The notes beneath the pieces are model-generated. The model made no database searches. It was not told the DNA's origin and worked only from the letters and a program-made list of their open reading frames with translations. A stretch of 64,000 nucleotides of DNA from the NCBI GenBank assembly GCA_016212515.1, contig JACRFZ010000037.1, positions 6,549-70,548 on the forward strand, given 5' to 3'. The DNA is from Candidatus Melainabacteria bacterium. GTDB taxonomy: Bacteria; Cyanobacteriota; Vampirovibrionia; Obscuribacterales; Obscuribacteraceae. Below, piece by piece: positions 16,007 to 24,346 of this stretch. Position numbers and translations under genes: made by a program. Positions within the stretch are counted from its first letter, which is position 1. The number at the start of each line of letters is the position of its first letter.

Positions 16007-16435
16007 CTACTGCTGTGCGTTAGCCGCAGCAGCCACAGCCTCAGCAAGATAGCCGGGGAAATGCTCAGGATAGCAGTGCAGATCACGGCCCTTAGCAAAA
16101 CCCAATTCATAGACTTGCTTCTGCCCATCGCAAAACCCGGACAAGACTTCCTCGGAAGGTAACTCTGCCGATAGAGAAGCAACATCGAAACCCAAATTAA
16201 AGGCTTCAAGATAAGGCTTGGGGCCGGCTTCATATTCAGCGATGGCCCGGGCGGAAATTCTCAATAGCGTAGGAAGATACTTATGCCCGTAATCGAAACG
16301 TCGTTGCTGATAAGTTTGAGAGTACAGGTTCCAGTCTGCTTCATTTTCAAAATGACCGGCTGATTTGCGAGCGCCTAACGCGGCATCGATTGCGGCTTGG
16401 TAACAAACAGGAGACTTATATTGGAAGAAAGCCAT
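16007..16435 (-). CDS. Hypothetical protein (142 aa)
   Basis: ORF. ATG 16435 has GGAG 9 nt upstream. It lies immediately downstream of the ClpP-like gene. Confidence 0.55.
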   Translation of the reverse strand: MAFFQYKSPVCYQAAIDAALGARKSAGHFENEADWNLYSQTYQQRRFDYGHKYLPTLLRISARAIAEYEAGPKPYLEAFNLGFDVASLSAELPSEEVLSGFCDGQKQVYELGFAKGRDLHCYPEHFPGYLAEAVAAAANAQQ

Positions 16436-16536
16436 AATGAAACTCCGAATTTTTAGAATGAAAGTGAACATGAAAGGTAAAGGCACTGCTCACCTTTCAG
16501 CCCGCAGGCTGGCAGACTGAGCAGCACCCGCAAGCA

Positions 16537-17358
16537 TCAAGGGCAAGTGCCGGAAAAGTCTGGTGCCTGCAAAATCTCATCGGCAAAACCGAGAGATACA
16601 GCCTCTTCAGCCTCTAGCCACCAATCTCGGCGATGGGCGCGCTCCTCTATTTGCTCTTCGCTGAGAGAAGAGCGAGCCGCCAGAATCTTCTTCAAGCTTT
16701 CCCAGAGACCGCGACAAAAGGCTGCCTTGTCTTCCATGGCATAAACACTGCCGATGCTTCCTGCTGAAACTGCGTGAATAAGAACCCGAGCATTAACGCC
16801 AATGATGCGCCTGTCGCCTGCCTGCAAAAGAATACCGCCCATGGAGGCAGCCATTCCAAAGCACATGACAGTGAGATGATGCCCCTGGGCACGCAATTGC
16901 TGGAGATAATCGTAAAGCGCGAGCCCAGCCAGAACAGACCCTCCAGGAGAGTTCAATATCACCGTTATAGGTCGCCCCGGAAAGCGTCGCCCAAGATTGC
17001 CGAGGTTCTCCAGAGCCGGTCTGATGCTCTCGTCAGTAACCTCGTCATAAAATGTGAAGGTGAGATTCTCAGCCTCAGTAGACCTGGCTAGCGCCGCATC
17101 ACGCTCCTTCTTCTCTAAATCGAGCCGGGCAATGCTCACCTGTGCTTCTAACTGCTGCAACTTCATTTTATTCTCAGAAGCAGCATACGCTTGCGCAGCT
17201 TGAGCGGTCTTGAGTCGCTGACGCGCCTCGGCTATGTGTAGTTTCTTGAGCTGCACGTCAAGGTCATTGCCACCAGGGCTGACTTTACTGTTGATAGAGC
17301 CAGGAACCGCCTTCGTGCTAATTCTCCGGCTCCTCCTCCGACTTTTCGGCTTGGTCAT
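16537..17358 (-). CDS. ClpP-family serine protease homolog with ~95-aa basic/coiled-coil N-terminal extension
   Basis: NSPGGSVLAGLALYDYLQ aligns with ClpP INSPGGVITAGMSIYDTMQ. The catalytic Ser is in GMAASMG, the His in LIHAVS and the Asp in RDWWLEAEEAVSLGFADEIL (ClpP [20 protein letters not shown]). The N-terminus MTKPKSRRRSRR... plus heptad-like region replaces the normal ClpP axial loop. Confidence 0.8.
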   Translation of the reverse strand: MTKPKSRRRSRRISTKAVPGSINSKVSPGGNDLDVQLKKLHIAEARQRLKTAQAAQAYAASENKMKLQQLEAQVSIARLDLEKKERDAALARSTEAENLTFTFYDEVTDESIRPALENLGNLGRRFPGRPITVILNSPGGSVLAGLALYDYLQQLRAQGHHLTVMCFGMAASMGGILLQAGDRRIIGVNARVLIHAVSAGSIGSVYAMEDKAAFCRGLWESLKKILAARSSLSEEQIEERAHRRDWWLEAEEAVSLGFADEILQAPDFSGTCP

Positions 17359-17504
17359 AACTACTTAATACCATTTGCAAAACATTGTCCTTAACTGCTC
17401 GAACATTCGGGAATCTCGCACCACTGCAGGCAGTTCGCTCCACATCCCAAAGGAGAAGGGCAAATAAGCTCAGGCAGACGGGTCGGGTGCAAAAACTGAC
17501 GACT

Positions 17505-17933
17505 CTAGCTCATTGGCTTGGGAATTAGATGACGAACAAATTCGTGTCCCACTTGCTCCGGCCCTATAACACTGCCCTGCAACATCTTGAAGAAACTCTC
17601 CAGGTCGGAAGTCGGGCTTGGCTGGCAGTGCAATTCATGACCGTTTATGGTGGGCGGCATATAAGCATTCAAAACCAATTCGTCACCAAATTCGGTTCGA
17701 TAGACTTGAGACTGTCTGCCGGATTCACAGCGTCTCCAGGTGCGACCGTAATGGTCAGACCCTTCCAGCGAACAGTTCTGCAAGTAGGCCCCGTCCGCCT
17801 CGCTGGTGTCGGCATCAAAGCCGGTCCATACCGCACGCATGCCGCGTGCTTGAATCACATCCTGAATAGCTCTGGCATCCTCTTGCGATGCGCCGAAGAA
17901 GCGCACGAGGATAACTGATTGAGTTGGATTCAT
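17505..17933 (-). CDS. Hypothetical protein (142 aa)
   Basis: ORF from ATG 17933 (MNPTQSVILVRFFG...). No family recognised. Confidence 0.45.
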   Translation of the reverse strand: MNPTQSVILVRFFGASQEDARAIQDVIQARGMRAVWTGFDADTSEADGAYLQNCSLEGSDHYGRTWRRCESGRQSQVYRTEFGDELVLNAYMPPTINGHELHCQPSPTSDLESFFKMLQGSVIGPEQVGHEFVRHLIPKPMS

Positions 17934-18336
17934 GGTTTTACTGGTGAAAGTGTATAGATTTGGTTGGGAAGGTGAAAGAAGATAAGTTGAGCCTATACTC
18001 ACAACCTCCCGATAGCAAGCCCCTCAAGCGCGGGAAACGGCAACCAGCCGTAAAAGAAACCCTCGTCAGTGAGAATACTGGGGTGCAGCCAACATGAAAA
18101 ACGCCCAAGAATTAAAGAACCACCATGCCGCGCTCCGCTAACTCCACCTGAGAACAAAAGAGAGCGGAGCACGATATAGCTAAATAGGCTCCTCCATCCA
18201 AGTCCAATAGCCGACCGAATGAACATATGAGACATGGTTCCGTCACAAACCTTTCGATATATTGTCAACAATCTAATTTCGAGTGACCAGGCCCAATCGC
18301 TCTCCTCTCAACCAGACTCACCTGAAGGAACAAGCT

Positions 18337-18765
18337 ATGCACAATCCTTTCAACTCCGCCGCAAAGTCCAAGCTCTATAAGCTAGAGAAGGCAGCTTGCA
18401 GCAGCAGGAGCGATTGCAGCGAAAAAACAACCAACACAGTAATCCCTTATGATTTCGCTGCCCGTAAGACCGACGAAGGAGAGCCGCATCTCTGCGCCCA
18501 TCATCTCAAGCACTATGATGGACAAATCATATATTTGAACATGCACGGCGAGCGCAGCTGGTACTTTGGCAAAGTGCACTATCGAGGCGAGAACAGTTAT
18601 GTAAATTTGGCTGTCGACTACAGCGAAAATGAAGAAGGTAGTCACTCTGCAGCCTATCCATTTCATCCAATGATGCTAGCCACCTTCTGCTTTAGACCTA
18701 CAAACGAGAAGGAATCCCACGGACTGAAATTCTCGTACGAGGATTTTATAGAGCGCTGGAAATAA
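18337..18765 (+). CDS. Hypothetical protein (142 aa)
   Basis: ORF. ATG 18337 is preceded by GAAGGAA. Confidence 0.5.
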   Translation: MHNPFNSAAKSKLYKLEKAACSSRSDCSEKTTNTVIPYDFAARKTDEGEPHLCAHHLKHYDGQIIYLNMHGERSWYFGKVHYRGENSYVNLAVDYSENEEGSHSAAYPFHPMMLATFCFRPTNEKESHGLKFSYEDFIERWK

Positions 18766-18959
18766 GCAACCACCCCGTCGAAAGATCAGTAACTACATCA
18801 AGAACCATAGGCTGGGCCGCAAGAACTGAGCCAACGAGACTTCCGTGCCTGACTGCCAGGAGAATGTAACAAGGAATGTAAGTCGGCTAAACTCGGGGCA
18901 AGTACAAGGTTTCTAACGACTGCAGATGCAAAAACAAAACTTCTCTGCGTTACAAAGAC

Positions 18960-18987
18960 TTGCTAATCTCTTTCCATCGACCATAAT
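18960..18987 (+). promoter_or_regulatory. Candidate sigma70-type promoter for the met leader/operon
   Basis: TTGCTA (18960-18965), a 16-nt spacer, then CATAAT (18982-18987). The predicted 5' end is near 18994-18995. This is pattern match only. Confidence 0.3.
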
Positions 18988-18994
18988 TGAGCCC

Positions 18995-19063
18995 ATGAGA
19001 AATCGCAATATGATGAGCATGCAGATGATGATGCCTTCCCCGGGGGAGGTTGTTGCTGCATGA
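18995..19063 (+). CDS. Met-rich leader peptide MRNRNMMSMQMMMPSPGEVVAA (22 aa)
   Basis: Translated by hand. Six ATG codons lie between 19010 and 19033, and the TGA stop is at 19061-19063. An alternative start is at ATG 19010. The SD is weak or absent, so it may be leaderless. Confidence 0.55.
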   Translation: MRNRNMMSMQMMMPSPGEVVAA

Positions 19064-19104
19064 TTGTTCCAGGATAGAAAAATATCCCAACACTAACAAG
19101 CGAC

Positions 19105-19139
19105 ATCCCCTCCCGCAAACGCGCGAGGGGATTTTTTTT
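19105..19139 (+). terminator. Intrinsic terminator (attenuator) immediately upstream of the metB-like gene
   Basis: ATCCCCTC (19105-19112) pairs with GAGGGGAT (19125-19132), with a 12-nt loop and then T8 (19132-19139). The SD AGGAG follows at 19140-19144. Confidence 0.8.
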
Positions 19140-19151
19140 AGGAGAAAACCA

Positions 19152-20363
19152 ATGGGCATCGAAAATCAAGATAGAAAACTAGGCTTCAACACACTGGCCA
19201 TTCACCAGGGGCAAGAAAGGGACTCAGCCACCGGGGCACTAATCACACCCATATATCAAACTTCCACCTTCGTTCTCGATGAGCTGGGCAAGAATAAGGG
19301 CTATCAATACGCCCGCACCCACAATCCTACCCGCAGCGCCCTGGAAGAGTGCCTGGCCTCTCTGGAAGGAGCAAAGTACGGCATCGCCTGCGCTTCGGGG
19401 CTGGCAGCCGTTTCCATTGTCACAGACCTTCTCAACGCCGGCGACCATGTGATCGTGGGCGAAGATGTCTACGGCGGTGTCTACAGGCTATTTGAGCGAG
19501 TCAAGAAGAAATTCAATATAGAATTCACCTATGTAAATACAGCCGACCTGGCCCAGATTAAGGCTGCAATCAAGCCCAATACCCGCATTATCTGGCTGGA
19601 AAGCCCAACCAATCCGCTCCTCAAACTAGCCGACCTGGAAGCCATCGGCGAGATTGCCAAGAAAAACAACCTCATCTTTGCAGTAGACAACACCTTTGCC
19701 ACCCCCTACTTCCAAAGACCGCTCGAATTCGGCGCCGACATCATAGTGCACAGCACCACCAAATATCTCGGCGGGCACAGTGACGTTATCGGCGGTGCCA
19801 TCATCACCAACCGAGACGATCTTTATGAAGAGCTCAAGTTTTACCAGAATGCCGGAGGAGCGGTACCAGGTCCCTTCGACTCTTATCTAATTTTGCGCGG
19901 TCTCAAAACTCTCGCCCTCAGGCTCAAAGAGCATGAGCGCAATGCCTTTGCCGTAGCCAATTTCCTCAGTCAACACAAATTCGTGAAAGCTGTCTACTAT
20001 CCGGGTCTACCCTCTCACCCGCAATTCGACCTGGCTAAAAAACAAATGAGAGGCTTCGGCGGGGTAGTGGCCTTTGTGGTGGAAGGCGGACTGGAGGCAG
20101 CACGGGCCCTGGTTAACGGCACTGAACTATTTCAGCTGGCGGAAAGTCTCGGCGGCGTCAAGTCTCTCATCTGCCACCCCGCTACCATGACCCATGCCCC
20201 TATTCCAAAAGAAGTTAGAGAGCCCCTGGGGATTGTGGATGGACTGATTAGATTATCCGTAGGTATTGAAGATGCTCCAGACCTGATTTTCGACCTTGAG
20301 CAGGCTCTTTCAAAGGCACAGGACGCGGCCACAGTGAAAGCCGCCAGCACGAAAGAGAACTAA
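19152..20363 (+). CDS. Cys/Met-metabolism PLP-dependent enzyme (cystathionine gamma-synthase / beta- or gamma-lyase family)
   Basis: Typical family sequence with the PLP lysine in HSTTKYLGGHSD. ATG 19152 has AGGAG 7 nt upstream. The listed 19050 start reads through the terminator and is rejected. Confidence 0.9.
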   Translation: MGIENQDRKLGFNTLAIHQGQERDSATGALITPIYQTSTFVLDELGKNKGYQYARTHNPTRSALEECLASLEGAKYGIACASGLAAVSIVTDLLNAGDHVIVGEDVYGGVYRLFERVKKKFNIEFTYVNTADLAQIKAAIKPNTRIIWLESPTNPLLKLADLEAIGEIAKKNNLIFAVDNTFATPYFQRPLEFGADIIVHSTTKYLGGHSDVIGGAIITNRDDLYEELKFYQNAGGAVPGPFDSYLILRGLKTLALRLKEHERNAFAVANFLSQHKFVKAVYYPGLPSHPQFDLAKKQMRGFGGVVAFVVEGGLEAARALVNGTELFQLAESLGGVKSLICHPATMTHAPIPKEVREPLGIVDGLIRLSVGIEDAPDLIFDLEQALSKAQDAATVKAASTKEN

Positions 20364-20396: not shown

Positions 20397-21659
20397 ATGT
20401 CAATTCAAAAAATCAAAGTCTTGAAGTTCGGCGGCACGTCCGTCAAGAACCCACAGCGCCTGGTTCACGTAGCCCAGATTATTGCCAGAGAGAAAGCCCA
20501 CAAATGCATCGTGGTTGTCTCGGCCATGGGTCAGACAACAGACACCCTGGTGAAACTGGCTTCTCGTTGTTCGCAAACACCAAATCCCAGGGAACTGGAT
20601 GTGCTATTAGCCACTGGGGAGCAGCAAGCAATTGCGCTCTTAAGTATAGTGCTGAGCGACCTGGGAGTGAGGGCCCGCTCCTTCACCGGCGCCCAACTGG
20701 GAATCATAACGGAAGCCAATTACGGAAATGCCGAGATATTGAGCATCGACAAAAGTAAAATTGAGGAAGCCTTCCAAACGCATGATGTAATTGTTGTAGC
20801 CGGCTTCCAGGGAGTCACCGCCACAGGAGACATAACTACACTGGGAAGGGGCGGATCGGATACATCGGCAGTGGCTCTGGCTGCCGCTACCCAGGCTGAA
20901 CTTTGCGAGATATACACAGATGTAGACGGCATCTTTACAGCAGATCCGAATATCATCAACGGCGCCCTTCAGCATTCAATTTTAAGCTACGAAGACTGCC
21001 TGGAGTTGGCTGCCAAAGGCGCCCAGGTCATTCACCCTAGAGCCGTGGAGTGCGCCCGGGAAAACGGCATTGATATAGCGGTTCGCAGTGTCTTCAATCC
21101 TGAAAACGAAGGCACTCTCATAACCAGCGGTAACGGCTCAACCTGGGAACGACCAGGACTGGTAGGCATTGCCGTTACTTCCGGCTTCAGCTTGCTGACT
21201 ATCGAATGCCAACAGGAATCGGACTTGAAAGAGTTGGATGACTTCATTAGAGGATTAGTTGGAGCAGTCAATGTACAGGAAACCATCTGGCGACTCGCTC
21301 ACACGGCTCAAGTGAACTACATAATTTCCGGGCTCAGTAAACCCATAGCAGAAAGGCTCCTGCAGTCACTGGCAGAAGCAGAAGCGAAGCCACGCGGCAA
21401 GCTGAGGCTGGACTATGTAAGACTGTCAATCGTAGGAAAAGAAGCACCGCTTGCCCCCCGAGAGAGTAAGACCATCGAAGAAATCCAGACCTGGCTTGCA
21501 CAGAATAGTTTACTCAGCACTGCCAGTGAACTTTCACTCTCAATCTATCTGGAGGAAGAAAAGGCAGTGGATGTCTGGAACCAACTGCACGAAATCCTGA
21601 AGCCGCAGCTGACTAAGGGGGAAGAGGCAAGAAAGGCACTGGTCGGGTCGACGGGCTGA
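20397..21659 (+). CDS. lysC: Aspartate kinase with C-terminal ACT-like regulatory region
   Basis: KVLKFGGTSV at the N-terminus, with GRGGSDTSAVALAA and EIYTDVDGIFTADP motifs. GAGGA is upstream. Confidence 0.92.
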   Translation: MSIQKIKVLKFGGTSVKNPQRLVHVAQIIAREKAHKCIVVVSAMGQTTDTLVKLASRCSQTPNPRELDVLLATGEQQAIALLSIVLSDLGVRARSFTGAQLGIITEANYGNAEILSIDKSKIEEAFQTHDVIVVAGFQGVTATGDITTLGRGGSDTSAVALAAATQAELCEIYTDVDGIFTADPNIINGALQHSILSYEDCLELAAKGAQVIHPRAVECARENGIDIAVRSVFNPENEGTLITSGNGSTWERPGLVGIAVTSGFSLLTIECQQESDLKELDDFIRGLVGAVNVQETIWRLAHTAQVNYIISGLSKPIAERLLQSLAEAEAKPRGKLRLDYVRLSIVGKEAPLAPRESKTIEEIQTWLAQNSLLSTASELSLSIYLEEEKAVDVWNQLHEILKPQLTKGEEARKALVGSTG

Positions 21660-21716: not shown

Positions 21717-23063
21717 ATGAGCAAAATAGTAGCGGGCCTTATAGGGCTGGGCACAGTCGGGACCGGAGTCGTGAGATTACTGGAGCGCCAGAATCATATC
21801 CGACTCAAGACCATAGCCGTGAGAGACATAAAGAAGAAACGAGAAGTTTCTCCATCATGCCTGATTACAGAAAATGTGCAGGACATAATTCAGGATCCTG
21901 AAATCGAACTGGTAATAGAAGTAGCAGGCGGCATCGAACCTGTTTACTCTTACCTGGAAGCAGCACTGAGAGCCGGGAAGCACGTCGTCACCGCCAACAA
22001 GAAGCTTCTGGCCAGGCGCGGACCGGAGCTTTTCTCACTAGCCAGGGCTAAGGGAGTGAATATTTTCTTTGAAGCCTCGGTGGCAGGCGGAGTACCACTT
22101 ATATCAACTCTACAGAAAGGTCTCAATGCCAATCAGATAAACTCCATCGCCGGCATTCTAAACGGCACCACTAACTACATCCTCTCAAAAATGCACAGCA
22201 GCGGCTGTTCCTTTGCCGAGGCCCTGAAAGAAGCACAAGAGCTGGGTTTTGCTGAAGCTGATCCGACCGACGATGTGGAAGGGCATGATGTGGCAAATAA
22301 ACTAAGTATTCTAGCGGCCCTCAGTTTCGGCCGCTTCGCCAACCCGGAGCAGATCCACCGAGAAGGAATCACCACTATCACAGCCAGGGATATTGCCCTG
22401 GCCAAGGCCAATGGCTGCGTCATAAAGCTAATCGGACTGGGTCTGCCACAGGAAAACAACAAGGTGGAACTGAGGGTGCATCCGGTTCTCGTGCCATTTG
22501 GACATCCCTTCTACGCAGTAAACGGGGCCGAGAATGCCATCCTTGTCAATGGCTCCGCCGTCGGACAGATTCTCTTGAGCGGTCCGGGAGCAGGAAGAGA
22601 ACCTACGGCTTCGGCAGTGGTAGGAGACGCCCTCAATCTTGCTCAGGTAATTAATCTTCCGGAGTTTGAGTCATTCTTCCAACCTAAAATAAACACGACC
22701 TGGGCTTCGCTCACGGAAGAATCAGAATTGGCTTTCGCCAACCTGGTGCGTATAAAGCTGCTCAGAAAAGGCGCTGATATTGAATTTGTGGCCAGAACGC
22801 TTTTGCAAAACGGGCTCAAGACACAAATAATCAATGCTGGAGAAGACGAAAGCGGATACAAGATTCTCTCGCTGACAACGGCAACACAGCCCGATGCCAT
22901 CGTCGAGGAAGCACTGGCTCATGTGCCAAATGCCATCGTCGAAAGCCGACTGAGACTTCTGCAAAACCAGCTTGCTGCCGGCTATCAAAGAGAGTCACGC
23001 GCACCGGCAAGCGCTCAGCAAACATTGAGAGGAAATTCTAGAGCTCTGAGCGTCAGTTGCTAG
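21717..23063 (+). CDS. hom: Homoserine dehydrogenase
   Basis: GLIGLGTVGTGV Rossmann start, plus KHVVTANKKLLA, GILNGTTNYILS and AEADPTDDVEGHDVANKL motifs. AAGGAG is upstream. Confidence 0.92.
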   Translation: MSKIVAGLIGLGTVGTGVVRLLERQNHIRLKTIAVRDIKKKREVSPSCLITENVQDIIQDPEIELVIEVAGGIEPVYSYLEAALRAGKHVVTANKKLLARRGPELFSLARAKGVNIFFEASVAGGVPLISTLQKGLNANQINSIAGILNGTTNYILSKMHSSGCSFAEALKEAQELGFAEADPTDDVEGHDVANKLSILAALSFGRFANPEQIHREGITTITARDIALAKANGCVIKLIGLGLPQENNKVELRVHPVLVPFGHPFYAVNGAENAILVNGSAVGQILLSGPGAGREPTASAVVGDALNLAQVINLPEFESFFQPKINTTWASLTEESELAFANLVRIKLLRKGADIEFVARTLLQNGLKTQIINAGEDESGYKILSLTTATQPDAIVEEALAHVPNAIVESRLRLLQNQLAAGYQRESRAPASAQQTLRGNSRALSVSC

Positions 23064-23227
23064 TGAAAGTCAAAAGTGAATTTACACTTCTAAGCCAGTG
23101 CGCACAAATGACTCTGAGCATGCTAACCTTTCATCAGCGCCGATTTGTAACTCCGCTTGCGGGCGCTTAATAAGATGTGCAGCTAAAGCGAGGCTAAGAC
23201 AAGTGATTTCAAAATAAGATTTTCAAC

Positions 23228-23262
23228 TAGAGGGCGAGTCCTGACTGCAGACTCGCCCTCTA
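23228..23262. other. Perfect 13-bp-stem hairpin with no T tract
   Basis: TAGAGGGCGAGTC (23228-23240) pairs with GACTCGCCCTCTA (23250-23262), with a 9-nt loop. It lies between hom and cysK. Confidence 0.6.
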
Positions 23263-23350
23263 ACACCATTCCGCAACCCTTTCAAAAGGCAACTCAAGCG
23301 TTGCTTAGATATACCTGGTTTAGATATGCCTACCTTGGCAAGGCAGAATA

Positions 23351-24346
23351 ATGACACAAATCATAAATCCACAGCAGAACAATACTATTGCAGACGATCC
23401 GCAAATCCTTAGCGATCTATCAAGAGCGGTAGGCAAGACACCACTACTGCGCCTGAATAGCCTCACAAAAGGCCTCGGAGCAACTGTTTTAATCAAGATG
23501 GAATCGATGAATCCACTTGGTTCAGTTAAAGATAGAATTGCAGTTGCCATGCTCGATGATGCGGAACAGCAAGGATTAATCGAGCCGGGGAAAACCCTTC
23601 TCATAGAACCGACGTCAGGAAACACCGGCATAGCGCTGGCATTTGTCGCTGCTGCCAGAGGCTACAAGTTGCTGTTGGCAATGCCGGAGTCTATGTCACT
23701 GGAACGGCGAAATGTACTGGCAGCCCTGGGAGCAGAGCTAGAACTCACTCCTGCGGCAGAAGGCATGAAAGGAGCAATCGCTAGAGCGCAGACACTGCTA
23801 AGCGAGAGAAAAAATGCATACACCTTGCAACAGTTCTCTAATCCCGCCAACCCCAGGATACACAATCGCACAACTGGACCGGAAATCTGGCAAGCCACAA
23901 GGGGTGGAGTAGATATTCTGATTGCCGGCGTGGGCACTGGAGGGACGGTATCTGGCGCTGGAGCCTACCTGAAATCACAAAAGCATACGATTAAGGTCTT
24001 TGCCGTCGAACCAAAAGATAGTCCGGTAATCACCCAGAGAAGAGCAGGTCAGGAAATAAAGCCTTCACCGCACAAGATACAAGGTATTGGAGCAGGCTTC
24101 ATCCCCGAGAATCTCGACCTTTCCCTCTTGGATGGAGTAGTCACGGTAAGTAACGAAGAGGCATTTGATACAGCGCGCAAGCTCGCCAGGCAAGAAGGGA
24201 TCTTTGCCGGTATCAGTAGCGGCGCCAATGTCTGCGCCGCTCTCAAGCTAGCCTCAATGCCCGAGAACCATGGCAAAACGTTAGTTACCGTAGCATGCAG
24301 CACAGGCGAACGCTATATCTCCACGGAACTGTGGGCTACAAAATAA
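23351..24346 (+). CDS. cysK: Cysteine synthase A (O-acetylserine sulfhydrylase)
   Basis: NPLGSVKDRIA (PLP Lys), TSGNTGIALA and GVGTGGTVSG motifs. Confidence 0.92.
   Translation: MTQIINPQQNNTIADDPQILSDLSRAVGKTPLLRLNSLTKGLGATVLIKMESMNPLGSVKDRIAVAMLDDAEQQGLIEPGKTLLIEPTSGNTGIALAFVAAARGYKLLLAMPESMSLERRNVLAALGAELELTPAAEGMKGAIARAQTLLSERKNAYTLQQFSNPANPRIHNRTTGPEIWQATRGGVDILIAGVGTGGTVSGAGAYLKSQKHTIKVFAVEPKDSPVITQRRAGQEIKPSPHKIQGIGAGFIPENLDLSLLDGVVTVSNEEAFDTARKLARQEGIFAGISSGANVCAALKLASMPENHGKTLVTVACSTGERYISTELWATK

Follow-up and report, generated by a model that had tools for sequence, protein, structure and literature searches.

A candidate methionine-codon leader-peptide attenuator ahead of the metB-lysC-hom operon of Obscuribacterales

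The control of methionine genes is normally ascribed to SAM riboswitches, T-boxes or proteins of the MetJ/MetR type. To our knowledge, the accepted repertoire of leader peptides (Trp, His, Leu, Thr, Ile/Val, Phe and, more recently, Cys) does not include methionine. The locus described here, part of a 64-kb stretch of DNA (the window) from an uncultured Obscuribacterales bacterium (Melainabacteria) related to cyanobacteria, raises the question of whether it should, as a short ORF crowded with Met codons lies directly ahead of a Met-branch operon. A preliminary description had proposed that this leader is a methionine-sensing ribosomal attenuator.

The operon and its leader reading frame

The gene identities previously assigned to the operon hold. 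The first gene encodes a PLP enzyme of the cystathionine gamma-synthase type (NF005871, 521.6 bits, cutoff 513), and the gene order is metB-like, aspartate kinase, homoserine dehydrogenase and cysK, with intergenic gaps of 33 nt between the first two genes and 57 nt between the second and third. These gaps, and the Shine-Dalgarno (SD) sequence and ATG of the metB-like gene, are as first reported (Table 1). By its annotated content (cystathionine gamma-synthase, aspartokinase and homoserine dehydrogenase), the operon fits control by methionine.

Table 1. Sequence features and predicted RNA elements of the leader and operon, in window coordinates
Feature	Position	Strand	Details
Promoter-like site, sigma-70 type	18960–18987	+	−35 TTGCTA 18960–18965, 16-nt spacer, −10 CATAAT 18982–18987
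Leader ORF, 22 codons, MRNRNMMSMQMMMPSPGEVVAA and stop	18995–19063	+	No SD; ATG 18995, TGA 19061–19063
Met-codon run, putative regulatory codons	19010–19033	+	ATG at codons 6, 7, 9, 11, 12 and 13
Anti-antiterminator hairpin (segments 1:2), predicted	19012–19068	+	Fold, −22.2 kcal/mol
Antiterminator 5′ strand, predicted	19044–19057	+	Segment 2 (GGGAGG) plus UGUUGCU; constrained fold
Small spacer hairpin, predicted	19072–19087	+	GGAUA...UAUCC, inside antiterminator; predicted fold
Antiterminator 3′ strand, predicted	19099–19114	+	AGCGACA 19099–19105, CCUCCC 19109–19114; overlaps terminator 5′ arm
Intrinsic terminator (segments 3:4), predicted	19105–19139	+	Segment 3 AUCCCCUC(CC) 19105–19114, segment 4 GAGGGGAU 19125–19132; 8-bp stem AUCCCCUC/GAGGGGAU, inner 3-bp stem, U tract to 19139
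SD and metB-like gene	19140–20363	+	SD AGGAG 19140–19144, ATG 19152; proposed first regulated gene
Aspartate kinase, lysC-type, monofunctional	20397–21659	+	Protein-family match
Homoserine dehydrogenase	21717–23063	+	Protein-family match

The leader ORF carries six ATG within eight codons (codons 6–13), and both the ORF and the run lie where they had been placed. Chance is rejected as the origin of the run, because only 3 × 10−5 eight-codon stretches with at least six ATG are expected per window and one was observed.

The same parts occur in the same order in all 12 orthologous Obscuribacterales genome loci and in at least 11 metagenome loci: promoter, ATG without SD, Met-run ORF, hairpin, variable spacer, terminator, SD and metB-lysC(-hom). 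The metagenomes were scanned with a DNA pattern combining promoter and Met run, and the matches listed are mostly chance; at least 11 are real leaders, all preceding metB, and the contig of L112 ends before the gene can be identified. The lysC gene lies directly 3′ of metB in 11 of the 12 genome loci, the exception (L010) ending ∼200 nt past metB, and, among the metagenome matches listed, in every locus with a long enough contig. A homoserine dehydrogenase gene follows lysC in L003, L006, L007 and L128.

In each of the 12 genome loci, the short ORF has in-frame Met codons just 5′ of the hairpin. The ORF, 22 codons long in the window and 22–32 codons across all 25 relatives, starts at the promoter-proximal ATG and keeps its frame open in every leader, ending 5′ of the terminator. 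The Met codons follow the pattern M-x-M-x-M, with the last Met mostly at codon 13, and the run abuts the hairpin in every leader; all eight genome-derived leaders that have the window's architecture carry ATG at codons 9, 11 and 13. Met runs are present in 11 of the 14 lineages. The exceptions belong to one subclade (L003, L006 and L007), in which the RNA architecture is kept and several Lys/Arg codons stand in place of Met. These leaders keep only two, two and one internal Met codons, respectively, so Met richness is not universal. Outside this subclade, the run singled out in the preliminary description is conserved.

Single-base codon differences among the leaders of close relatives fall mostly at third positions (16/23). 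An ORF that is always open and a dominance of third-position changes make up a coding signature consistent with translation. Compared with the near-identical strain L128, 3 of 145 leader positions differ (2%), and 74 of 404 third codon positions of metB (18%); judged by sequence, the leader is under strong purifying selection. The N-terminal motif M-x-N-R-x-T of the peptides is fairly conserved. Apart from the Met run and the residues that the hairpin imposes (P-S...G), neither the sequence nor the length (22–32 aa) is conserved, and no Pfam or NCBIfam profile matched any of seven leader peptides, even at E ≤ 10. No second copy of a Met-rich or leaderless mini-ORF was found in the window or the other loci retrieved.

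The promoter-like site noted earlier is present upstream of this ORF. A TTGNNN/[CG]ATAAT pair ends 6–7 nt 5′ of the leader ATG in all 13 genome-derived leaders (7 nt in the window), the relatives' promoters being of the TTGACA/CATAAT type. Between the window and L128, 13 of the 35 aligned positions directly 5′ of the ATG differ, although the two hexamers have changed little: CATAAT is identical, and TTGCTA corresponds to TTGCAT in L128. An SD-like motif is absent at 12 of the 13 leader ATGs and present at all 13 metB starts. We infer a leaderless mRNA whose first nucleotide is the A of ATG 18995 or one adjacent to it, and translation of the leader presumably begins directly at this 5′-AUG. The first model of the leader stands with respect to the ORF, and is refined by this leaderless start without an SD.

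Alternative RNA structures

A covariance model was built from the leaders of the window and L128 and iterated once. The resulting alignment (A5) was adopted because plain MAFFT (A1, local G-INS-i) put helix arms out of register. The model recovers all 25 leaders at E ≤ 3 × 10−5 and gave no further matches in 897 kb, a search space that took in 68 loci from other phyla and the remainder of the window. A single consensus could not be written for the proximal antiterminator helix or the lower stem of the first hairpin, as their register differs between lineages, and duplex energies of cognate and non-cognate strands were therefore compared by permutation.

The leader folds better than 200/200 shuffles (z = −3.5). 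The first hairpin has a core in which CCUUCC (19034–19039) pairs with GGGAGG (19044–19049), both at the positions first given, and a lower stem in which CAUGCAG (19018–19024) pairs with CUGCAUG (19056–19062). Since the hairpin extends to 19012–19068, Met codons 9–13 are themselves predicted to pair with the strand 3′ of segment 2. Segment 1 had been limited to CCUUCC; that pairing stands and its extent does not, the segment being larger and including the Met codons. The extended hairpin is predicted in all 14 lineages, at −20 to −34 kcal/mol, with the Met codons inside its 5′ strand in every case. Duplexes between the Met-run region and the distal strand give −9.9 kcal/mol for cognate and −7.6 kcal/mol for non-cognate pairs (permutation p = 0.0014). 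The core 1:2 hairpin alone gave no cognate specificity in the duplex-energy permutation (p = 0.11), because CCCUCC/GGAGGG is nearly invariant. The core scores as terminator-like and a U-rich stretch comes after it; the hairpin may double as a pause site.

The antiterminator is a two-part helix. The pairing of segments 2 and 3 through GGGAGG:CCUCCC, as first described, is retained; it was incomplete, a second, distal helix (19051–19057 with 19099–19105) bringing the whole to ∼13 bp. When segment 1 was masked and the RNA cut 5′ of the terminator 3′ arm, segment 2 paired with the terminator 5′ arm in 12/12 leaders. The antiterminator is the minimum-energy fold of the full leader in L008 and L009. 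Over their full length, most leaders reach minimum energy as hairpin plus terminator, and in these the antiterminator is predicted to win only kinetically or with segment 1 masked, which is expected for attenuators and is not proof. In the window the energies are balanced, at −22.2 kcal/mol for the hairpin, −22.0 kcal/mol for the antiterminator duplex and −17.5 kcal/mol for the terminator. Cognate antiterminator strands give −22.6 kcal/mol vs −17.4 kcal/mol for non-cognate strands, a difference reached in 0 of 20 000 permutations (p < 5 × 10−5). The distal helix did not enter the fit of the alignment used to assess it, which relied on the other two helices alone, and is 74.6% paired there, compared with 10–44% when slid. 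The spacer hairpin is not conserved in sequence between lineages, and the spacer columns of A5 are variable.

Segments 3 and 4 form the 8-bp G+C-rich terminator stem at the positions first reported. The T run spans 19132–19139, so its eight Ts include the last stem base, and the first U of the reported U8 belongs to the stem. Across the 23 aligned sequences 96.7% of the cells in this helix are paired, and 22 of the 23 leaders have a canonical terminator with a U tract, that of L192 being weak. The predicted folds leave the metB SD, located 3′ of the terminator, unpaired. The alternative pairings of the preliminary description are conserved and co-vary in the constrained folds, in the permutations and in compensatory (double) changes, which occur in five of the six distal antiterminator pairs and seven of the eight terminator pairs.

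An Rfam search over the 64-kb window gave no hits at gathering thresholds, and at E ≤ 10 positions 18700–19300 gave only chance matches of <20 bits, against thresholds of 45–60. Models for SAM riboswitches (SAM-I to SAM-VI), T-boxes and Trp, His, Leu and Thr leaders did not match the region, as had been anticipated for the SAM and T-box families, and no relevant Rfam family was found over 13 loci of other phyla.

Proposed mechanism and rival explanations

With conserved parts and a co-varying terminator and antiterminator, the attenuator interpretation is supported in refined form, and none of the computational tests proposed with it spoke against it. We consider it probable (about 0.8), on the strength of sequence comparison and predicted folding, that the leader is a classical ribosome-mediated transcription attenuator with Met regulatory codons, controlling the metB-aspartate kinase-homoserine dehydrogenase operon; a read-through response to charged tRNA-Met is what we infer from this. 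RNA polymerase would initiate on the A of ATG 18995 or on a neighbouring nucleotide, and a 70S ribosome would begin the 22-codon leader on the leaderless mRNA. The nascent RNA would fold over 19012–19068, with Met codons 9–13 and CCUUCC as the 5′ strand and GGGAGG and UUGUUGCUGCAUG as the 3′ strand, and at this hairpin polymerase may wait for the ribosome to catch up. With Met-tRNA(Met) plentiful, the ribosome would pass the Met run to the UGA at 19061 and cover the 3′ strand of the hairpin, or the hairpin would re-form behind it, so that the terminator (19105–19132 and the U tract) would form and transcription would end before metB. If charged elongator tRNA-Met were scarce, the ribosome would linger on the Met run and mask the 5′ strand, and 19044–19057 would be free to pair with 19099–19114. 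As this antiterminator would consume the terminator 5′ arm, polymerase would then read into metB-lysC-hom. A ribosome stalled at codon 6 or 7, the earliest of the Met run, would leave the antiterminator strand masked. In addition, Met starvation should limit fMet-tRNA too, and leaderless initiation might then fail when read-through is needed.

The AUG triplets could instead be recognised as repeats by a TRAP-like multimeric RNA-binding protein, loaded with Met or SAM, that stabilises or masks the 5′ strand, the ORF being incidental. They are often exactly 3 nt apart (AUG-NNN-AUG-NNN-AUG), which resembles the spaced (G/U)AG repeats bound by B. subtilis TRAP (PMC3064811). However, this spacing is not conserved, the window and Acidobacteriota leaders having adjacent AUGAUGAUG, whereas the reading frame is: every Met run is in frame with the promoter-proximal ATG without an intervening stop, the ORF always ends 5′ of the terminator, and third-position/synonymous changes prevail in the codons flanking the run. 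No gene linked to the locus is a candidate for such a regulator, and we regard this explanation as very improbable. A similarly slight chance is given to an undescribed Met- or SAM-binding riboswitch that acts on the same terminator and antiterminator and leaves the short ORF a by-product. Methionine genes are commonly under riboswitch control, many small SAM classes exist and new ones are still being found, and an undescribed class is compatible with the absence from Rfam. On the other hand, the spacer between hairpin and terminator varies freely in sequence and length, and there are no conserved unpaired nucleotides for a ligand pocket. Outside the helices, what is conserved is the ATG codons, the start codon and the spacing between the latter and the −10 box, and it is the Met run, and not the RNA fold, that other phyla have in common.

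A leader that depends on the ribosome might still not be specific for Met. It could sense general translation or leaderless-initiation capacity (fMet-tRNA, formylation or 70S availability), or act mainly through translational coupling or Rho rather than through the intrinsic terminator. Because the start appears leaderless, initiation itself depends on fMet-tRNAfMet; in Acidobacteriota and Planctomycetota, the output of the analogous leaders appears to be sequestration of the metB SD rather than a U-tract terminator, and the leaderless polycysteine sORFs of mycobacteria work at the translational level (bioRxiv 10.1101/834739). Such a sensor is nevertheless unlikely, given an enrichment specifically for Met codons, before a Met-branch operon and in several phyla, the co-varying canonical U-tract terminator in 22/23 aligned Obscuribacterales leaders, and a metB SD (19140–19144) outside the terminator stem. 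We find it most improbable that the ORF encodes a functional micropeptide, or that the ATG run supplies redundant starts, with the hairpin as the constitutive terminator of a small gene. The fairly conserved N-terminal motif would suit a micropeptide, and the leader transcript might exist as a free small RNA or mRNA, like rnTrpL/peTrpL of Sinorhizobium (PMC7298713), but the variability of the remaining peptide and its lack of Pfam/NCBIfam matches argue against it. Moreover, a constitutive terminator 12 nt before the SD would silence a promoterless operon of an essential pathway, and the co-varying antiterminator would have no role.

Known systems and wider occurrence

The proposed attenuator corresponds closely to the trp, his, leu, thr, ilv and pheA attenuators of enterobacteria (the Yanofsky model), which likewise have a short ORF rich in codons for the end product, regulatory codons in segment 1, mutually exclusive pairings 1:2, 2:3 and 3:4, and a U-tract intrinsic terminator just 5′ of the first structural gene. 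The his and phe attenuators also share the arrangement of several regulatory codons in a run. The attributes of an attenuator, namely a translatable short ORF, enrichment for codons of the pathway, an intrinsic terminator and an antiterminator that excludes it, all appear from the sequence to be present in the window. Unlike the enterobacterial attenuators, the Obscuribacterales leader is proposed to sense Met, for which no established example was found, has no SD and apparently a leaderless 5′-AUG, belongs to no Rfam leader family, and resides in Melainabacteria.

In E. coli, cystathionine gamma-synthase, aspartokinase and homoserine dehydrogenase are encoded by the metBL operon, controlled at the promoter by the SAM-dependent repressor MetJ. 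There the same three activities are under Met-specific control in one operon, with kinase and dehydrogenase fused (MetL); in the window they are separate genes, and the switch proposed acts at the level of RNA and ribosome. Met T-boxes (such as that of S. aureus metICFE-mdh, PMC3771891) and SAM riboswitches are likewise cis-acting leader RNAs with alternative terminators and antiterminators, coupling Met-gene transcription to Met-tRNA charging and to SAM, respectively. They differ in that uncharged tRNA or SAM is bound directly by the RNA, with no ORF.

The mycobacterial polycysteine sORFs (Canestrari et al.), which act on translation (bioRxiv 10.1101/834739), are also leaderless first cistrons with consecutive codons for a sulfur amino acid 5′ of genes of that pathway. 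They work via ribosome stalling at scarce charged tRNA, as proposed here for the Met leader. In contrast to the latter, they have Cys rather than Met codons and no intrinsic terminator, a very stable duplex sequestering the SD; a codon tract sequestering the downstream SD in place of a terminator is not what is found in the window. No description of a classical Met leader-peptide attenuator was found in the openly searchable full-text literature, that is, outside subscription journals, and according to one survey (PMC4833913) reliable data on attenuation are lacking for the cyanobacterial lineage. The sole precedent found is a weak one, the proposal of a Met-dependent leaderless leader peptide, 'metL', upstream of metNIQ in S. 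lividans (PMC8079986). It too precedes a Met-related operon, but this encodes a transporter rather than biosynthesis, the peptide (MSTTSDRTPATEATTTPGARCMCRRMCAF) contains just two internal Met residues, with Cys interspersed, and no terminator was identified. The proposal comes from one genome, and there is no sequence similarity to the Obscuribacterales leaders.

Leader ORFs with a Met run are likewise found ahead of metB-hom in Acidobacteriota, Planctomycetota and one Bdellovibrionales MAG, the homoserine dehydrogenase gene lying directly after metB in the Acidobacteriota and Planctomycetota loci. The parallel leaders of these two phyla suggest a broad theme; they appear to resemble SD-sequestering translational attenuators of the mycobacterial type. 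No second operon with a Met-run leader was found in the window, the retrieved loci or the metagenome matches listed, so nothing within these points to a regulon. Tentatively, and at slightly worse than even odds, Met-codon leader ORFs before metB-(lysC)-hom may form a widespread, unrecognised class of Met-sensing ribosome-dependent attenuators, found in at least four phyla, with interchangeable outputs and leaderless or nearly leaderless starts. If so, the class would span Melainabacteria, Acidobacteriota, Planctomycetota and Bdellovibrionota, with output through SD sequestration except in Obscuribacterales and the Bdellovibrionales MAG, where an intrinsic terminator would serve. Given such starts, the switch would read both the initiator and the elongator Met-tRNA pools.

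The simple signature and the covariance model can be used by annotators to call such leaders. Since Met serves in initiation as well as in elongation, and the start is seemingly leaderless, the locus also poses the question of how the switch stays on when a shortage of Met reaches initiation too. A well-supported Met attenuator would fill a gap in the amino-acid repertoire of leader peptides, and would place the mechanism in the cyanobacterial/melainabacterial lineage.

Leader, operon and flanking genes

Every leader part named in the preliminary description, from the promoter-like site, which a consensus scan recovered, through the ORF with its Met run and the four complementary segments to the SD and start codon of the metB-like gene, was found again where it had been placed, the other parts by a reading of 18600-19400 (see the table). 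The Met run is the sole stretch in the window with at least six ATG in eight codons (expected 3e-5 per window). At -50.2 kcal/mol, the fold of the 160-nt leader is lower in energy than all of 200 shuffles (z = -3.5). AT skew on the + strand is positive (A over T, 0.04-0.32) in every 2-kb bin of 1-64000, regardless of the strand of the long ORFs.

Coordinates of leader features in the window and in related or comparable loci
Feature	Locus	Position	Sequence or remark
ClpP-like protein, 273 aa	window	16537-17358 (- strand)	long N-terminal extension
ORFs without family match	window	16007-18765
Promoter-like site	window	18960-18987	TTGCTA-16-CATAAT
Leader ORF	window	18995-19063	MRNRNMMSMQMMMPSPGEVVAA; ATG 18995, TGA 19061-19063
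Leader N-terminus	window	18995-19009	codons 1-6 in relatives
Met run	window	19010-19033	six ATG within codons 6-13
First hairpin	window	19012-19068
Hairpin extension	window	19018-24 : 19056-62	CAUGCAG : CUGCAUG
Segment 1	window	19034-19039	CCUUCC
First hairpin core	window	19035-19059	followed by UUGUUGCUGC
Segment 2	window	19044-19049	GGGAGG
Antiterminator	window	19044-19049 : 19109-19114
Antiterminator, added helix	window	19051-19057 : 19099-19105
Segment 3	window	19105-19114	AUCCCCUC(CC)
Segment 4	window	19125-19132	GAGGGGAU; T run then reaches 19139
SD of metB-like gene	window	19140-19144	AGGAG
Start of metB-like gene	window	19152	ATG
hom-cysK gap	window	23064-23350	287 nt
Promoter-like site in gap	window	23335-23364
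Leader of same family	L112	2398-2605	MQIRTGALTMSMQMPPKLGK...
Lys/Arg-containing leaders	L003; L006; L007	4794-4886; 4794-4886; 382-480	...NKRKMQMRKPS / ...NKRSKQMRKPS
Met-run leaders, Acidobacteriota	L035; L043; L049; L053; L059	4837-4991; 4835-4991; 4851-4994; 4835-4991; 4810-4991	end ...GRMMMR[R/C]PGA.A, stop
Met-run leaders, Planctomycetota	L052; L071; L062; L058	4776-4991; 4782-4991; 4756-4991; 4621-4961	M.MSMPSPGAG
Met-run leader, Bdellovibrionales MAG	L063	4694-4825	ORF ends MHRSMMQMCMTNAAA, stop

The gene order was also as described: the metB-like gene, encoding a PLP enzyme of the cystathionine gamma-synthase type (NF005871, 521.6 bits, cutoff 513), lies 33 nt ahead of the aspartate kinase gene, and 57 nt separate the latter from the gene for homoserine dehydrogenase. 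The E. coli metBL operon, controlled by MetJ, provides cystathionine gamma-synthase, aspartokinase and homoserine dehydrogenase activities, and since the window operon has the identical three, its content fits Met-sensing attenuation. Because the gap between hom and cysK is long and holds a promoter-like site, cysK may lie outside the attenuated operon; in the related loci examined it is not adjacent. The ClpP-like protein sits among ORFs without a family match, and it matches ClpP and phage head-maturation protease models only below their thresholds.

Conservation of the leader and its alternative structures

A protein-guided scan, with one genome per species, gathered 12 loci from Candidatus Obscuribacterales / Melainabacteria MAGs whose MetB is 68-83% identical to that of the window; the next-best MetB matches (at most 60%) were all from other phyla. 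The 350 nt upstream of metB have the same order of parts in all 12: a promoter whose -35 box resembles TTGACA and whose -10 box reads [C/G]ATAAT, a leader ATG 6-7 nt past the latter, an ORF that is 25-32 codons long and contains Met codons in frame (usually as M-x-M-x-M(-x-M), with the last at codon 13), a C-rich/G-rich first hairpin immediately 3' of the final Met codon, a spacer that varies, and a G+C-rich terminator hairpin with a U tract, then the SD and metB start. Aspartate kinase directly follows metB in 11 of them (the contig of the other, L010, ends ∼200 nt past metB), and homoserine dehydrogenase follows lysC in L003, L006 and L007. A metagenome scan with a promoter-plus-Met-run DNA pattern, whose matches were mostly chance, added at least 11 further leaders, all preceding metB(-lysC). 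No second operon with such a leader was found in the window, the fetched loci or the metagenome matches listed. The sole candidate for another downstream gene among the matches listed is L112, where a leader with terminator and SD (E=3e-8 with R2, a covariance model of Obscuribacterales leaders) precedes a gene beginning MSCSDI... and cut by the contig end; this gene could be metB with a divergent N-terminus.

In most leaders, the minimum-energy fold of the full-length RNA is the first hairpin plus the terminator. The pairing of segments 1 and 2 proposed from the sequence stood, its extent did not: the hairpin is longer and includes the CAUGCAG:CUGCAUG pairing. Segment 1 thus contains the Met codons, just as it contains the regulatory codons of the trp and his leaders. 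All 14 lineages have a comparable extended hairpin (-20 to -34 kcal/mol), and pairing of the Met-run region is stronger with the distal strand of the same leader than with distal strands taken from other lineages (-9.9 vs -7.6 kcal/mol; p=0.0014 by permutation).

To mimic a stalled ribosome, the RNA was kept single-stranded as far as 12 nt beyond the last Met codon's first base, and for antiterminator folds the RNA was also cut ahead of the terminator's 3' arm. In 12/12 leaders, the freed 3' strand then paired with the terminator 5' arm and with bases immediately 5' of it. In the window, the proposed pairing of segment 2 with segment 3 was reproduced, with an added helix. In the related loci L008 and L009, the complete leader has the antiterminator as its minimum-energy fold even unconstrained. 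Cognate antiterminator strands average -22.6 kcal/mol vs -17.4 for non-cognate ones (0/20 000 permutations). For the window, the first hairpin (-22.2 kcal/mol), antiterminator duplex (-22.0) and terminator (-17.5) are predicted to be energetically balanced alternatives.

Because plain MAFFT alignments left the helix arms out of register, a covariance model was built on the hairpin-plus-terminator structure, with one iteration. It recovers 25/25 Obscuribacterales leaders (E≤3e-5) and has no other match in 897 kb, a set that includes the remainder of the window and 68 loci from other phyla. In the resulting alignment of 23 leaders, the modelled helices are 90.9% paired, with double changes in eight pairs and 48 cells (reached by 0/500 shuffles). 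Compensatory changes were found in relatives. Taken alone, the terminator has 96.7% of its cells paired and covariation in 7 of its 8 pairs. In the distal antiterminator helix, 74.6% are paired (slid controls reach 10-44%), and 5 of the 6 pairs show double changes; for instance, a G-C pair in one of the sister lineages L007 and L003 is A-U in the other. The alignment was not fitted to this last helix, since it was outside the covariance model.

Probable leader translation, proposed mechanism and alternatives

The comparative evidence supports the reading first proposed, refined in three respects. The best-supported explanation, with a probability of about 0.8, is transcription attenuation of the classical ribosome-mediated kind in which Met is the amino acid sensed. 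A U-rich stretch comes after the first hairpin core, which a simple scan flags as terminator-like, and the hairpin might act as a pause site synchronising polymerase with the leader ribosome, a role likened to that of the trp 1:2 hairpin.

Translation of the ORF from a leaderless start is suggested by several features. Every leader keeps the ORF open and in frame with its promoter-proximal ATG; this ATG lies 6-7 nt past the end of the -10 box in 13/13 genome-derived leaders; and an SD-like motif is absent from -20 to -4 at 12/13 leader ATGs and present at 13/13 metB starts. Among single-base codon differences between closely related leaders (pairs that are not phylogenetically independent), 16/23 are at the third position and 13/23 are synonymous. 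The leader N-terminus is fairly conserved (M-x-N-R-x-T, codons 3-4 being AAY CGN) among lineages that differ in their remaining non-Met codons, and might matter for leaderless initiation or early elongation.

Between the window and L128, a near-identical strain (MetB 98% identical), 3/145 leader positions from ATG to U tract differ vs 74/404 third codon positions of metB, so the entire leader transcript is far more constrained than synonymous sites; immediately 5' of the ATG, 13 of 35 aligned positions differ.

Were the leader a micropeptide gene followed by a constitutive terminator, the operon would be silenced and the antiterminator would serve no purpose. The peptide is unconserved except for the Met run, an N-terminal M-x-N-R and the hairpin-dictated residues P-S...G, which argues against a functional micropeptide. 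Recognition of spaced AUG triplets by a TRAP-like protein does not fit, as the frame and ORF are conserved but the AUG spacing is not; nor does a new riboswitch class, given that the stretch between the two antiterminator strands is free to change in both length and sequence. The element could instead sense translation or initiation in general, or act through Rho or at the level of translation, but this is less economical: the codon bias is Met-specific and the intrinsic terminator co-varies.

Met attenuation has its own weak points. Met starvation should also hit initiation of the leaderless ORF, stalling too early in the Met run would be unproductive, and the L003, L006 and L007 leaders have only 1-2 internal Met codons. 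This Obscuribacterales subclade, whose leaders contain three Lys and two Arg codons, has retained the hairpin as well as the antiterminator and the terminator. It could have shifted to mixed Lys/Met sensing, conceivable because the operon includes aspartate kinase, or its Met sensing could have decayed.

Met-codon leaders in other phyla and known attenuators

A Met-run mini-ORF lies directly upstream of metB in 10 of the 68 other-phyla loci fetched with MetB: five Acidobacteriota, four Planctomycetota and one Bdellovibrionales MAG. Homoserine dehydrogenase follows metB in 7/9 of the Acidobacteriota and Planctomycetota loci (L035, L049 and L053 among the former, and all four of the latter) and not in the Bdellovibrionales locus. 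All ten leaders have a TTGAC-type promoter 8-11 nt ahead of the ATG and no SD, and neither the Obscuribacterales covariance model nor Rfam matches them. Their predicted folds sequester the metB SD without a U-tract terminator, except in the Bdellovibrionales locus, which has a clear one (CCCCGGC...GCCGGGG + U7, ∼130 nt upstream of the metB ortholog). In Acidobacteriota, a CCCUCC element is paired with the metB SD in predicted folds, which looks like translational instead of terminator-based control. The metB SD is likewise paired in the predicted Planctomycetota folds, and the M-P-S-P-G stretch there resembles the window's MMMPSPGE, probably reflecting a similar CC..CCCGGG..GG hairpin. Since ten other-phyla loci carry such mini-ORFs, Met-codon leaders before this metB operon are a recurrent theme, whether by descent or by convergence.

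The element is in no curated sequence family. Rfam at gathering thresholds gave no match, tRNA or other, across the 64-kb window; on the leader region at E≤10 it gave chance matches only (freshwater-2, 19.5 bits, and PyrR, 18.7 bits; thresholds 50-54), in line with the expectation of no SAM riboswitch or T-box. Seven leader peptides matched no NCBIfam or Pfam family at E≤10. No description of a classical Met attenuator was found in the full-text literature searched. A 2005 survey placed methionine under S-box RNAs, with no RNA element for methionine in Actinobacteria (PMC1262725), and a 2016 survey noted that reliable attenuation data are absent for cyanobacteria (PMC4833913). The nearest precedents are the mycobacterial polycysteine sORFs, which are leaderless and act on translation (bioRxiv 10.1101/834739), and the leaderless 'metL' peptide upstream of metNIQ in Streptomyces lividans, a single-genome proposal (PMC8079986) with two internal Met and no terminator identified. 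uORF attenuators are still being reported for other amino acids within the known mechanism (Cys/cysS, Phe/aroF; PMC8632094).

Judged from its sequence, the element has each testable defining feature of leader-peptide attenuators. Since it also falls in no curated family and no Met attenuator was found described, what would be new relative to known attenuators is its Met specificity, its leaderless start and its lineage.
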